This document shows positions 14,484 to 16,669 of a stretch of DNA of 64,000 nt, in pieces. Within the stretch, counting starts at the first letter, position 1; each line of letters starts with the position of its first letter. The notes under the pieces are model-generated. The model worked only from the letters and a program-made list of their open reading frames with translations. It made no database searches and was not told where the DNA came from. This DNA comes from Marivirga sp. (lineage in GTDB: Bacteria; Bacteroidota; Bacteroidia; Cytophagales; Cyclobacteriaceae): NCBI RefSeq assembly GCF_035704835.1, contig NZ_DASSWQ010000014.1, positions 5,613-69,612 of the forward strand. The letters run 5' to 3'. A program made the position numbers and the translations under genes.

Positions 14484-14535
14484 CACTGAATTGCACTAAA
14501 GATTTCACTAAGTACACTGAGGATAGCCGTAGGCT
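14484..14535. repeat. Short CACT(A/G)A repeats followed by an AGCC-GTA-GGCT hairpin
   Basis: CACT units at 14484, 14494, 14506 and 14515; hairpin 14525-14535. Confidence 0.5.
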
Positions 14536-14572
14536 GTTAATTTAACCACAAAGTAACAAAAAAATAAAAGGA

Positions 14573-14790
14573 CAGCCGAAGGCTGAATATATTCACGCCA
14601 AGACGCAATGGCGCAAAGTTTACGCAACGAAAAAATGACTAGCTAAAGATAAAGGTGTTTAGCCATTTATCCTCCTAGAATATTTCTACCTTCATCCTAG
14701 TCAGATCCTAATTAAAAAAACCTTTGCGGTTCACTTCAATCCTTTGCGTCATAGCGGCTCTGCGAGAGTAGTCACACAGCCTTTGGCTGT
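14573..14790. repeat. MITE/REPIN-like unit with composite inverted ends (triloop hairpin plus nCGCAAAG octamers)
   Basis: Left: CAGCC-GAA-GGCTG then ACGCCAAG-ACGCAATG-GCGCAAAG. Right: CTTTGCG..CTTTGCGTCATAGCGGCTCTGCG then ACAGCC-TTT-GGCTGT. Confidence 0.6.
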
Positions 14791-14849
14791 TAATTTTTTG
14801 CTTCTTCTTTTCTTTAGCGAAAACTAAAAAATATTTCCGTATATACTTT

Positions 14850-14889: not shown

Positions 14890-14964
14890 GGTGGATGTAG
14901 CTCAGTTGGTTAGAGTATCGGTTTGTGGTACCGAGGGTCGTGGGTTCGAGCCCCATCTTCCACC
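14890..14964 (+). tRNA. tRNA-His (GTG); CCA not encoded
   Basis: Cloverleaf: G-1, acceptor GTGGATG/CTTCCAC (one mismatch), D arm GCTC/GAGT, anticodon stem TCGGT/ACCGA with loop TTGTGGT, T arm GTGGG-TTCGAGC-CCCAT, discriminator C. Confidence 0.96.
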
Positions 14965-14971
14965 CAAAAGA

Positions 14972-14999: not shown

Positions 15000-15228
15000 C
15001 TCAATTTGATATCATAATTGATATTTTTCTTGCCCAAGTTTTCTAAGAAAACAATCAACAAATTCGATTGAAATCGAATCAGTTGACAAAATTTATTTGT
15101 AATCATTTCATTTATTCTTGGCTTAGCGATTAGACGGATCGAACCGTCAAACCGTAAAGTTCAGTTATGCCGCCTACAAGGCTTTCCAAAATTATTAACT
15201 CTCAAATTTTTAATTGTTAATTAATAAG

Positions 15229-15429
15229 ACCTCTCTGTCCTTCGGACATCTCCCCTAAAACAAGGGAGCAACAGATTGTGCCAAACATGAGAAGTTTGCC
15301 TAAGAAAAACTCTTATACTTCAAAACAGAACAAACAAAAGATTTAAAATAAACAGTATAAATTGGCTAGAAGCAGTTCCCCACTCCCCTCCTTACAAAAA
15401 GGAGGGCTGCCCGAAGGGCGGGGTGGTTG
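15229..15429. repeat. 201-bp direct repeat, copy 1 (palindromic REP-like ends, AT-rich core)
   Basis: Aligns without gaps to 15936-16136 (offset 707 nt) with 7 mismatches counted by eye. Confidence 0.95.
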
Positions 15430-15516
15430 TCAAAACCTGTGCCCGAGAGCGGGGCGGTTGCATAAATTCAAAATTAAATCAGATTCTTTTTTAAAATATC
15501 AGAGCTTTTTATTTAA

Positions 15517-15912
15517 TTGAAATCGCAACAATACATAGTTAGTCCCTTGAAAAACTATCAAATCCATAATAGACCTGAACTAAAAGAATACAGAAAAAGA
15601 CTGAGAAACAATGGTACACCTGCAGAAGCCTTTTTGTGGAATTACTTAAAAGCCAAACAATTAAAAGGCAGGAAATTCAGAAGGCAATTTAGTGTAGGAA
15701 ACTATATTTTAGATTTTTATTGCCCTGCTGAAAAACTTTGTATTGAATTGGACGGTGCCGACCATTTTACTTCAGCAGGTTATCAAAATGACGAGGAAAG
15801 AACAAATTATTTAAATCATCTCGGAATCAAAGTTATTAGATTTGAAAATAAAACAGTTTTTGATGCAACTGAAAGTGTGTTGGAGACTATTGTGAGTAAT
15901 TTTAAGGAGTGA
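15517..15912 (+). CDS. DUF559 / Vsr-like endonuclease domain protein
   Basis: LRNNGTPAEAFLW, KFRRQ, ILDFYC, IELDGADH, D..RT.YL..LG.KVIRFEN. No ATG; TTG at 15517 or 15547. Confidence 0.92.
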   Translation: MKSQQYIVSPLKNYQIHNRPELKEYRKRLRNNGTPAEAFLWNYLKAKQLKGRKFRRQFSVGNYILDFYCPAEKLCIELDGADHFTSAGYQNDEERTNYLNHLGIKVIRFENKTVFDATESVLETIVSNFKE

Positions 15913-15935
15913 AAAAGCTCTTAAACCGCTGAATA

Positions 15936-16136
15936 ACCCCTCAGTCCTTCGGACAGCTCCCCTAAAACAGGGGAGCAACAGATTGTGCTAAACATGAGAA
16001 GTTTGCCTAAGAAAAACTCTTATACTTCAAAGCAGAACAAACATAAGATTTAAAATAAACAGTATAAATTGGCTAGAAGCAGTTCCCCACTCCCCTCCTT
16101 ACAAAAAGGAGGGCTGCCCGAAGGGCGGGGTGGTTG
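15936..16136. repeat. 201-bp direct repeat, copy 2
   Basis: See copy 1. Followed by a partial extra end, AGTCCGAAGGGCAGGGTGGTTG (~16143-16164). Confidence 0.95.
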
Positions 16137-16225
16137 CAAATCAGTCCGAAGGGCAGGGTGGTTGAGTTGCTTGTGTGTGGCAATCAAAAAACCAAAAAAT
16201 AAATATTGAATAAATTAGCCATTTT

Positions 16226-16260
16226 TCCTTCTCCAATAGGAGAAGGATTAAAGGATGAGG
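16226..16260. repeat. Solo REP-like hairpin with purine tail
   Basis: TCCTTCTCC-AATA-GGAGAAGGA then TTAAAGGATGAGG. Confidence 0.65.
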
Positions 16261-16325: not shown

Positions 16326-16353
16326 TTCCCCTTTTGGGGGAATTAAAGTGGGC
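16326..16353. repeat. Solo REP-like hairpin with purine tail
   Basis: TTCCCC-TTTTG-GGGGAA then TTAAAGTGGGC. Confidence 0.5.
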
Positions 16354-16423: not shown

Positions 16424-16669
16424 TTACTTCTTTTTGTATTTTTGGTTGAACTTCTCCACACGACCTGCAGTATCCAAGAAGATTTTCTTTCCTGTATAAA
16501 AAGGGTGAGAAGCTGAACTAACTTCGATTTTAATTACTGGATATTCTTTACCATCTTCCATTTTAATGGTTTCACCTGAGGACATTGTAGACCTCGTTAA
16601 GAATTTCACATCTGCTTGAGTATCCCAAAACACAACTTCTTTGTATTCCGGATGAGTATCTTTTTTCAT
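16424..16669 (-). CDS. rpmE2: 50S ribosomal protein L31 type B
   Basis: [29 protein letters not shown]; no Zn-ribbon cysteines. Confidence 0.97.

Follow-up and report, generated by a model that had tools for sequence, protein, structure and literature searches.

What links a small nuclease gene to the structured repeats that enclose it is the question raised by a short stretch of a Marivirga genome. In the window (the whole 64,000-nt stretch of DNA analysed) the tRNA-His (GTG) gene lies at 14891-14965 on the plus strand (ARAGORN, Rfam, own-genome scan and genus comparison; the own-genome scan showed it to be the sole tRNA-His gene of the genome), and rpmE2, encoding ribosomal protein L31, lies at 16424-16669 on the minus strand (family match and genus comparison). 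Between them sits a composite made up of an open reading frame and two 201-nt sequences, E1 (15229-15429) and E2 (15936-16136), which form an ungapped direct repeat on the plus strand with exactly 7 mismatches (97% identity) and a start-to-start distance of 707 nt. Both the coordinates and the mismatch count bear out an earlier sequence-only reading, which had described two ungapped 201-bp copies around an intact nuclease gene.

The reading frame (15517-15912, plus strand) matched the Pfam family DUF559 (PF04480) with E=7e-32 and 110 bits against a cut-off of 20.6. The homologous start is the TTG at 15547, which aligns with the ATG or GTG starts of the orthologues, and the gene (15547-15912) encodes a protein of 121 aa. 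PDB entry 3HRL matched this protein at E=2e-21, and the AlphaFold2 model (pLDDT 90.6) was matched in fold by 3HRL, by I-Bth0305I and by the nuclease domains of PvuRts1I/AbaSI. The top-ranking 3HRL is an uncharacterised DUF559 structure; among characterised folds the nearest is that of the Vsr-like (EDxHD) homing endonuclease I-Bth0305I (PDB 3R3P), with a Foldseek E of 7e-4 and a target-based TM-score of 0.74. The earlier description of DUF559 as a Vsr-like nuclease agrees with both the Pfam match and the Vsr-like PD-(D/E)XK fold. Residues D56, E67, D69, H73, R98 and N101 do not vary among 35 relatives, and dN/dS values of 0.03-0.32 indicate purifying selection wherever the cassette, that is the gene with its flanking repeats, is located. 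DUF559 is the only gene between the repeats, the other open reading frames of the interval having no family match. The family is large, with 23,136 clusters at E<=1e-3 (about 23,000 at 50% identity). Carriage on plasmids or phages was limited to 18 records of the plasmid collection, mostly of chromosome or megaplasmid size, together with 2 phage records; none of these reached 60% identity. A defence system was also considered and rejected, as PADLOC returned weak nuclease-domain matches only.

The ends of the 201-bp repeats had been read as inverted double hairpins. The hairpins are present exactly as described, GTCC-TTC-GGAC with CTCCCCT-AAAAC-AGGGGAG at the left end and CCCTCCTT-ACAAA-AAGGAGGG with GCCC-GAA-GGGC-GGGGTGGTT at the right end; what had been missed is that each end forms an intrastrand triplex motif (TM). 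The blocks of a TM follow each other in the order pyrimidine tract, loop, purine tract, GNA-triloop hairpin and G/T third strand (CCCCTCCTT..AAGGAGGGG..hairpin..GGGGTGGTT). The type-A TM consists of CCCCTCCTT-ACAAA-AAGGAGGG, the linker hairpin GCCC-GAA-GGGC and the third strand GGGGTGGTT, and the type-B TM, on the minus strand, of CTCCCCT-loop-AGGGGAG, the hairpin GTCC-GAA-GGAC and the third strand GAGGGGT. Because the third strand mirrors the purine tract in sequence, it could lie antiparallel on that tract by forming G.G-C, T.A-T and A.A-T triads. The modules contain all three blocks of a TM (a pyrimidine tract, a complementary purine tract and an antiparallel, triad-capable third tract), and the match between purine tract and third strand is perfect for AAGGAGGGG with GGGGTGGTT, AGGGGAG with GAGGGGT and GGAGAAGGA with AGGATGAGG. 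When folded as single-stranded DNA, the end hairpins scored better than shuffled sequences (z = -2.6 to -4.3; ViennaRNA models just the two hairpins of a TM and no triplex). At the level of sequence the ends are intrastrand triplex motifs, and as such putative triplex formers.

Each 201-bp repeat is a doublet of two inverted TMs, in E1 with a spacer of about 115 nt between them, and represents a gene-less relative of the cassette. In E1 the outer left module (15228-15268, minus strand; recognized by folding and by E1/E2 comparison) is a degenerate type-B TM: four of the seven E1/E2 mismatches fall in this end and break the motif, and its hairpin contains a mismatch. The gene-proximal upstream module (15385-15428, plus strand) is a type-A TM, detected by motif scan and folding, which was found upstream of orthologues too. 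In E2, the same two methods identified the gene-proximal downstream module (15935-15975, minus strand) as a type-B TM with perfect hairpins and third strand, and the outer right module (16092-16135, plus strand) is a type-A TM identical to that at 15385-15428. The nuclease gene is thus placed between two inward-facing TMs, both of whose third strands point to the gene. Partial extra right ends had been claimed to follow both copies; these are real, and belong to repeat family D2. They are reiterations of linker plus third strand on the plus strand, CCCGAGAGC-GGGGCGGTT at 15442-15460 and, by repeat comparison, GTCCGAAGGGC-AGGGTGGTT at 16144-16164. Two relatives (G011 and G003) have this unit in longer tandem arrays. 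Further to the right, a TM of a second family with a short linker, TCCTTCTCC-AATA-GGAGAAGGA-TTAA-AGGATGAGG, occupies 16226-16260 (plus strand); the genome contains at least 11 copies of this family. An imperfect TM-like motif, TTCCCC-TTTT-GGGGGAA-TTA-AAGTGGG, was read from the sequence at 16326-16352 (plus strand). TTCCCCC motifs related to it appear in the tRNA-His intergenic regions of relatives and in the motif scan.

In the whole genome, 12 of 42 pyrimidine-purine hairpins were followed by a perfect antiparallel third strand not more than 45 nt downstream. In the controls, shuffling of the tract order left 1.24 such cases, parallel order gave 2, and the search upstream gave 0. The motifs fall into three sequence families, in each of which the third strand matches its own purine tract. 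The hairpin linkers (53 unique, with 31 distinct stems) showed covariation: 99% of the cells were paired, seven of eight pairs had changed on both sides, and none of 500 shuffles equalled this. Triloops read on the TM strand were GNA in 28 of 33 cases and TNC in none, so the GNA triloops pointed out earlier are both typical and strand-specific. Upstream of the gene the structured strand is the coding one, downstream of it the template strand, a switch more easily understood for an end structure at the DNA level than for an RNA element. An RNA element was rejected also on the grounds that no Rfam family matched over the repeats at E<=1 and that the modules are mirror-symmetric on opposite strands.

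Intrastrand TM repeats of the TM/TMECO (BoxC) type have for decades been known as abundant and rearrangement-prone, with no associated mobility gene (Holder et al. 2015; PMC4666352). Their TMECO consensus is CCCTCNCCC-N3-6-GGGNGAGGG-N3-GGGNGAGGG, with loops of 1-6 nt (PMC4666352). The modules described here share with them the block order and a third tract, rich in G, that is the mirror image of the purine tract (purine-motif, class II), and both are intergenic, occur in either orientation and lie at rearrangement-prone loci with no transposase nearby. They differ in the second loop: instead of 1-6 nt, it measures 12-23 nt and forms a GC hairpin bearing a GNA triloop (12-14 nt in the E-element modules), and therefore the published TM search could not have detected this hairpin-linked variant. 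The tract sequences are also different (CCCCTCCTT/AAGGAGGGG/GGGGTGGTT), and the E modules lack the combination of short loops and consensus tracts; short-linker versions of E-type tracts flank orthologues in other genera. A third difference is that the modules here are paired and inverted around a DUF559 gene or a spacer. Our literature search found no paper mentioning DUF559 together with triplex.

The explanation that we prefer, although we would put it at slightly under an even chance, is that cassette and doublets form a selfish pair in which the nuclease acts on its own folded ends, and that the system has become a low-copy remnant in this genome. It has to be weighed above all against the possibility that the TM doublets are self-sufficient and are spread by host recombination, slippage or an enzyme acting in trans, the DUF559 gene being trapped cargo with an unrelated host function. 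Cargo would not be expected to keep a regular relationship with the repeats. Of 35 orthologous loci (53-85% identity), which span the order and come from about 24 genera, 33 have TMs no more than 260 nt from the gene; in about 27 of the 35 the TMs lie on both sides and are inverted. The background away from the gene was 16 motifs in 82 kb of these loci. By these counts the motifs do recur elsewhere and show strong enrichment beside DUF559 genes. With helicase-fused DUF559 domains, 12 of 14 loci had no TM; of the remaining two, one TM was weak and the other lay in a TM-rich region. The four distant homologues examined, from S. meliloti, E. coli, N. gonorrhoeae and Picosynechococcus, all had TM-like repeats not farther than about 200 nt from the gene, although in the strict scan both-sided TMs were seen in S. 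meliloti only, where doublets flank the gene as they do here. The TM sequences beside the gene differ among these distant phyla, which is likewise unexpected for cargo. These data show that the unit of a gene between inverted TMs is found repeatedly throughout the order and also beyond it, in other phyla, at different sites, some of them inside large reading frames.

Copy numbers speak on both sides. This genome contains four doublets. Except within the flanking pair, no two of them are more than 78% alike, and hence they give no hint of recent spread; the doublet family in this genome is small and old. In the genus, 10 other species have related doublet copies. Among g19 genomes, which contain up to 97 TMs each, the median number of TMs unlinked to the gene was 21 with the gene and 0 without it (Mann-Whitney p=3e-5, ignoring phylogeny), whereas within the genus of the window the presence of the gene and unlinked TMs were weakly linked (p=0.05, phylogeny again ignored). 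Covariation of the motifs with the gene, which the sequence-only reading had proposed to check, is seen in g19 but is weak in the home genus. Most unlinked TMs of g19 belong to gene-less doublets sharing the cassette ends and sub-terminal sequence, and these doublets look like deletion derivatives of the cassette as judged by sequence. In one genome (G122) there are two cassettes with two TM subtypes, each paired to its own doublet family. Shared sub-terminal sequence, subtypes that match individual gene copies, and purifying selection on the protein all count against a passenger gene. In favour of it are two TM-rich genomes without any DUF559 candidate (G472 with 84 TMs and G433 with 32), one genome with doublets but no DUF559 gene (G001), and the second TM family of this genome, which has no cognate gene. 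TM loci elsewhere are rearrangement hot spots without a mobility gene (PMC4666352), and in our analysis, too, rearrangement breakpoints abutted doublets. Together with the lack of target-site duplications described below, these facts speak for a passenger gene, which on balance we think the less probable account.

Traces of mobility speak for the selfish pair. The composite lies behind tRNA-His in four species and is missing from that intergenic region in at least four others; one species retains a remnant of it there, and two (G003 and G011) carry it elsewhere. With rpmE2 as right neighbour it is found in this genome only, relatives having an 821-aa gene in that place. Comparison of the tRNA-His interval among relatives, another check that had been proposed, yielded both filled and empty species but no clean empty site: between tRNA-His and the 821-aa gene, filled and empty species are too diverged for a junction to be defined, and no remnant was seen at the displaced 821-aa gene (C35). 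In g19 the cassette occupies one site in about 13 of 61 genomes; this site is a 53-nt intergenic region in G436, empty yet without a sharp junction, and its flanking genes are adjacent in the Marivirga genome. Other g19 species hold the cassette at other sites. Filled and empty alleles thus exist at one intergenic site in g19 and at tRNA-His in genus g1, with blurred boundaries. Homing endonuclease genes are marked by such a polymorphism at a fixed site and by cutting of the empty allele.

Solo doublets are present at other loci both in this genome and in other genomes. No consistent target-site duplication was found at the flanks of 13 of them, and their right border is fuzzy because several copies share about 40 nt past the right end (GTAAATAATTAAG...). 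Neither for the composite nor for the doublets was a target-site duplication or a clean empty site found among the compared relatives, whose intergenic regions are too diverged. At one site (C79) other small repeats fill the place where the doublet is absent. A blastx search with a 400-bp doublet variant found no gene remnant in the spacer. The locus has been mostly vertically inherited.

The resemblance to RAYT and REPIN that the sequence-only reading had proposed can now be judged. RAYTs are reportedly single-copy genes flanked by inverted structured repeats, the same repeats occurring as dispersed inverted doublets. Here, too, a single-copy nuclease-type gene is located between inverted repeats, inverted doublets are dispersed, and gene-bearing g19 genomes have the larger repeat populations. 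The enzyme is different, a Vsr-like PD-(D/E)XK nuclease instead of an HUH/Y1 transposase (no HUH gene was found between the repeats), as are the repeat unit, a TM plus hairpin instead of a REP hairpin, and the low copy number in this genome (four). Unlike domesticated RAYTs, the cassette occupies many sites, even inside genes. From the geometry of gene plus inverted repeats and from the gene-less doublets elsewhere, the analogy is therefore structurally apt; the part that failed is a REPIN-like population in this genome. The cutting or mobilising of the hairpins by DUF559 and the loss of the 707-bp unit by excision, which that reading had also put forward, are candidate steps.

Other mobile elements are less similar. 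MITEs resemble the doublets in being non-coding and about 200 bp long, with terminal inverted repeats, conserved ends, a variable middle and few to tens of copies, and the doublets resemble deletion derivatives of a coding element as MITEs do; here, however, there is no transposase-encoding parent, no target-site duplication was detected, and the ends are self-folding triplex/hairpin modules. I-Bth0305I, like DUF559, is a small nuclease whose gene behaves like a selfish insertion with presence/absence polymorphism, but it is intron- or phage-associated, has a separate DNA-binding region, and lacks both flanking structured inverted repeats and gene-less repeat derivatives. In IS200/IS605 elements and PATEs the two ends have their sub-terminal hairpins on the same strand, the termini are not inverted, and the enzyme is the Y1 protein TnpA. 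The ends described here are inverted, the structured strand switches between them, and TnpA is absent.

According to the favoured explanation, cassette and doublets would be a present or former selfish pair of autonomous and non-autonomous members. The nuclease would recognize its own ends when these are folded as single strands, and would nick there. Subsequent repair, by homing or gene conversion from a filled copy, or else template switching would then maintain, homogenize and occasionally spread the modules. It counts against this account that a PD-(D/E)XK nuclease is not known to transpose DNA on its own. In this genome the system would be a low-copy remnant with largely vertical inheritance, and the 97% identity of E1 and E2 may reflect a recent conversion or re-duplication in the lineage of this species. 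A wider version, in our opinion possible but rather doubtful, is that small DUF559 nucleases in general are the missing partners of intrastrand-triplex repeats, both of the BoxC/TMECO type and of the hairpin-linked variant. Gene plus inverted TMs would then be autonomous and the doublets non-autonomous, and the enzyme would read folded single-stranded DNA and drive homing, homogenization and the rearrangements at TM loci.

The Vsr-like fold of DUF559 also raises the possibility that the protein is a Vsr-type T:G mismatch endonuclease serving a cytosine-5 methyltransferase, with the hairpins acting as terminators or insulators of a horizontally acquired gene. In Caulobacter, a DUF559 protein, VsrA, has a functional link with the solitary methyltransferase ScmA (PMC12907096), and there is one C5-methyltransferase gene in this genome. 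A methyltransferase partner was, however, neither linked to the locus nor co-occurring in the genus: two cassette-bearing genomes (G011 and G003) have no PF00145 match, whereas 11 of 14 cassette-less species have one. Moreover, the modules are mirror-symmetric on opposite strands and without T-runs, and the gene-less doublets would be left unexplained. We consider such a repair function improbable. Programmed inversion of the gene by its flanking inverted repeats (phase variation) might be suspected from the bracketing itself and from the enrichment (odds ratio 14) of DUF559-annotated genes among predicted programmed-inversion targets (PMC9881135), but it is very unlikely, since in the genus of the window the two gene-proximal arms are different TM types sharing short tracts only, the orientation of the gene relative to the TM types is the same in all six species, and there is no adjacent invertase gene. 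Equally hard to credit is a plain recent tandem duplication (1.28 copies of the 707-bp unit, with no element biology), to which the direct orientation and 97% identity of the copies would point: the E1/E2 pair is conserved in other species, the doublet-gene-doublet order being common to G007, G009, G010 and G011 with the complete pairs (G009, G010 and G011) only 69-79% alike, and solo doublets exist at other loci, so that duplication is contradicted as a full explanation and survives only as the recent conversion or re-duplication behind the 97% identity.

DUF559 is a large bacterial domain family without a settled function, and TM repeats are orphans without an enzyme (PMC4666352); their pairing may explain both. 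The sequence comparisons suggest, as the partner of one class of orphan repeats in bacteria, a large enzyme family of "unknown function", and as the physical pairing of DUF559 and TMs is reproducible across phyla, both questions can be tested directly with a protein of 121 aa and oligonucleotides of 45 nt. To what was known of such repeats the present locus adds the hairpin-in-the-loop variant, strand-specific GNA triloops and a doublet-gene-doublet layout shared with S. meliloti. If the nuclease acts on its own ends, it would be a mobility enzyme of a new kind, in a repeat-and-enzyme system that combines a PD-(D/E)XK fold with a non-B DNA structure, and, if this is true, a second nuclease-repeat symbiosis, independent of RAYT. 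This would bear on genome instability, on annotation, where cassettes lying within host genes are read in frame, and possibly on the use of structure-specific nucleases as tools.

The DUF559 open reading frame (15517-15912; Pfam match E=7e-32) is located between the single tRNA-His gene on its left (14891-14965, plus strand) and rpmE2, the L31 gene, on its right (16424-16669, minus strand). The TTG at 15547 occupies the position of ATG or GTG starts in aligned orthologues, which gives a 121-aa protein. Both sides of the frame carry an ungapped 201-nt direct repeat (15229-15429 and 15936-16136); the two copies differ at 7 positions and are 707 nt apart. Re-reading of the sequence gave the same end hairpins and partial extra right ends (15442-15460 and 16144-16164) as had been described in the sequence-only reading. 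When folded as single-stranded DNA, the repeat ends were more stable than shuffled sequences (z = -2.6 to -4.3).

The ends follow the logic of an intrastrand triplex motif (TM): pyrimidine tract, loop, purine tract, hairpin linker and G/T third strand. At the right end, CCCCTCCTT-loop-AAGGAGGGG-[GCCC-GAA-GGGC]-GGGGTGGTT, the last tract is the purine tract reversed, with A replaced by T; a purine-motif intrastrand triplex, built of G.G-C and T.A-T triads in which the third strand runs antiparallel to the purines, needs just this. The left end has the same order on the opposite strand (CTCCCCT-GTTTT-AGGGGAG-[GTCC-GAA-GGAC]-GAGGGGT), and its third tract also mirrors its own purine tract. The same mirror rule is obeyed by a third, unrelated family, TCCTTCTCC-N4-GGAGAAGGA-N3-4-AGGATGAGG, of about 70 nt with flanks and with short linkers, which is present in at least 11 genome copies (window 16226-16260; contigs C57, C30, C77, C23, C41, C42, C4, C93, C49 and C6) and for which no cognate DUF559 gene was found in the window's genome. 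Genome-wide, 12 of 42 pyrimidine-purine hairpins had a perfect antiparallel third tract at most 45 nt downstream; the corresponding numbers were 1.24 when the tract order was shuffled, 2 for parallel third tracts and 0 on the upstream side. Triplex motifs have already been described, under the names TM, TMECO and BoxC, as a class of repeats that are abundant in bacteria, form triplexes in vitro, mark rearrangement-prone loci and have so far yielded no mobility enzyme (PMC4666352). The published pattern has loops of 1-6 nt (PMC4666352), whereas the window's ends have a hairpin in place of the second loop.

Each 201-bp copy, hereafter doublet, consists of a type-B TM on the minus strand, about 115 nt and a type-A TM on the plus strand; the third strands form its outer tips. 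Since the DUF559 gene has the type-A TM of copy 1 on its left and the type-B TM of copy 2 on its right, the third strands of these two TMs face it. In a genome from another family of the order (G037, 61% protein identity) an insert of about 510 bp comprises a TM, the gene and an inverted TM, and is flanked by two genes which adjoin, 28 nt apart, in the window's genome; the minimal conserved unit (cassette) is therefore the gene with two inverted TMs. The right-end module is followed by tandem reiterations, at intervals of about 28-31 nt, of a unit made up of the linker hairpin, GGGGTGGTT and about 10 nt more (window 15411-15460 and 16118-16164; also loci L069 in G011, L067 in G003, L089, L083 and L073). 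There are 2 such linker and third-strand units in the window and 4-5 in G003 and G011, and in L073 whole-TM triplets were seen downstream of the DUF559 gene.

From all retrieved loci, 53 unique linker hairpins were collected; their stems are of 31 kinds. Among 24 distinct linkers of 22 nt, 99% of cells were paired, as against just 31-51% in slid registers, and 7 of the 8 pairs had changes on both sides. Double changes were found in 65 cells versus 18.8 in shuffles, none of 500 shuffles being as good. Stems at orthologous sites differ by palindromic growth at the apex (GTCC-TAC-GGAC vs GTCCGC-TAGCTA-GCGGA). On the triplex-block strand 28 of 33 triloops were GNA, in agreement with the earlier remark on GNA triloops, and none was TNC; the linker structure is therefore strand-specific. 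Upstream of the gene it is the coding strand that carries the structure, and downstream the template strand, a switch more in keeping with an end structure at the DNA level than with an RNA element.

An orthologue was found at E<=1e-30 in 41 of 401 genomes of the order. TMs of the window's sequence types lie within 260 nt of the gene in 33 of 35 orthologous loci (53-85% identity), and on both sides in inverted orientation in about 27 of them; elsewhere in these loci, just 16 TMs were found in 82 kb. The third strand is gene-proximal in most loci, as in the window, and distal in four. At control loci with helicase-fused DUF559, TMs were absent in 12 of 14; one of the other two was a weak match and the other lies in a TM-rich region. 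The bracket extends to distant relatives. Four distant homologues from other phyla, chosen among the top matches of a search in a plasmid collection, each have their own TM tract sequence. S. meliloti has TM doublets on both sides of the DUF559 gene, which is the window's architecture. The N. gonorrhoeae gene, that of PDB entry 3HRL, has TMs downstream (scan) and an imperfect one upstream (read by eye), and Picosynechococcus has TMs about 115 nt downstream (scan) and more G/C-tract motifs on both sides (read by eye). In E. coli, BoxC-type motifs read by eye come after a ycjD-like gene, for which the strict scan gave just one motif, of 6 nt, some 235 nt downstream. The DUF559 family comprises 23,136 clusters at 50% identity (E<=1e-3), and many of the best matches are inside proteins of 400-1350 aa. 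DUF559 has been listed as enriched among predicted inversion targets (PMC9881135); in the literature collection searched, no paper names both DUF559 and triplex. Some close relatives lie inside frames open for 373-1572 aa across cassette and TMs (L089 in G061, L098 in G211, L099 in G226, L078 in G046; P0006, P0012, P0040, P0041 and others), with 1361-1572 aa open across the cassette at several loci of the order, which suggests in-frame insertion into host genes.

The protein evolves under dN/dS of 0.03-0.32 between orthologues, and R16, R20, E27, W31, F44, R45, R46, Q47, D56, F57, E67, D69, G70, H73, R98 and N101 are invariant in 35 relatives. Its confident AlphaFold2 model (pLDDT 90.6) matched 3HRL (E=8e-9), then I-Bth0305I, a Vsr-like homing endonuclease, in its catalytic domain (E=7e-4), and further the nuclease domains of PvuRts1I and AbaSI. 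One Caulobacter DUF559 protein has been functionally tied to a methyltransferase (PMC12907096). Co-occurrence gave no support for a Vsr/Dcm-type partnership, and comparison with defence-system and phage families gave no good fit.

In the window's genome (3.8 Mb, 34% G+C) just two further copies of the 201-bp element were found, C27:6228-6424 and C79:8112-8308, with 72-76% identity to the window copies; DUF559 was matched twice more, each time as the C-terminal domain of a protein longer than 1000 aa. The system is a small, old remnant here, and not an active REPIN-like population. The predicted co-variation of end motifs with DUF559 genes was strong in a related genus of the order (g19) and weak in the window's own (g1). 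In g19, unlinked TMs numbered up to 95 in the 23 gene-bearing genomes (median 21); in the 38 gene-less genomes the median was 0, and 20 lacked them altogether (Mann-Whitney p=3e-5; Fisher odds ratio 24; kinship ignored). In g1 the type-A pattern occurred 1-7 times in six gene-bearing genomes and was present in 4 of 14 gene-less ones (reversed pattern, 0), the difference in unlinked copies being weak (p=0.05, kinship ignored). Two TM-rich genomes, G472 (84 TMs) and G433 (32 TMs), had no DUF559 candidate whatever, and in G441 and G428 cassette DNA was present and the protein match absent. The doublets could be self-sufficient and the DUF559 gene trapped cargo, which such genomes would fit; we consider this rather unlikely. 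G122 has 65 TMs, arranged in 30 plus/minus pairs whose third strands all point inward; 28 pairs are gene-less doublets and 2 lie around a DUF559 gene. The TM subtype differs between the two gene copies, with a separate doublet family for each, and the doublets carry the cassette's sub-terminal GGTGGTTCCGTCGTTGAACGA motif. By sequence, the gene-less doublets look like internal-deletion derivatives of the cassette.

The ancestral g1 locus has tRNA-His followed by an 821-aa gene. The composite (doublet-gene-doublet) is at this locus in G000, G007, G009 and G010, a left-end-only doublet remnant is in G013 (L102), and no composite was found there in G001, G006, G011 and G014; G003 and G011 have composites at unrelated loci. 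In G009 and G010 the composite is followed by the 821-aa gene; in the window's genome the right flank is rearranged, rpmE2 being in its place and the 821-aa gene on another contig. The flanking doublets are 97% identical here and 79% in G011 and 69-71% in G010 and G009, and the near-identity therefore reflects recent conversion or re-duplication in the window's lineage. Four of the 7 repeat differences damage the outer left TM, and the gene-proximal TMs are perfect. The C79 doublet is common to G009 and G014 and missing in seven species; synteny with L169 is lost 6 nt past its end (C79:8308). At that site in G013 (L169) the doublet has collapsed to AACCACCCC-GTCCGCTAGCTAGCGGAT-GAGGGGTT, both tips and one hairpin, which with the left-end remnant shows a decay route of these elements. 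Synteny breaks fall at doublet ends, in the window right of 16136 (vs L065/L068) as at C79:8308. About 13 of 61 g19 genomes have the cassette at one and the same intergenic site; that site is a 53-nt empty intergenic region in G436 and has a single pyrimidine-purine hairpin in G074, and other g19 species have the cassette elsewhere. Neither target-site duplication nor sharp junction was found at the tRNA-His, C79 and g19 sites compared.

Other repeats were seen as well. A small-hairpin cluster between the UDP-glucose dehydrogenase gene and tRNA-His (14484-14800; AGCC-GTA-GGCT, AGCC-GAA-GGCT, AGCC-TTT-GGCT), with partial copies on C21, C48, C22, C35 and in G001, looks like another small repeat family. 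An abundant small inverted-motif repeat, AGATTGCTTCG...CGCAATGACGG, fills intergenic regions in several g1 species, among them downstream of the C79-site gene (L171, L172, L175 and L176, in G001, G007, G006 and G011). In L108-L111 (G003, G004, G005, G008) the tRNA-His 3' end and terminator are duplicated about 130 nt downstream (GGTCTTCCACCCATTAG...), which resembles the partial, att-type tRNA repeat that an integrative element leaves behind.

Taking into account the several insertion sites and the gene-less derivatives, cassette and doublets probably are, or were, mobile units. More tentatively, they may form one system, in which the nuclease would recognise its own folded ends and nick there, and repair would then spread or homogenise the ends.
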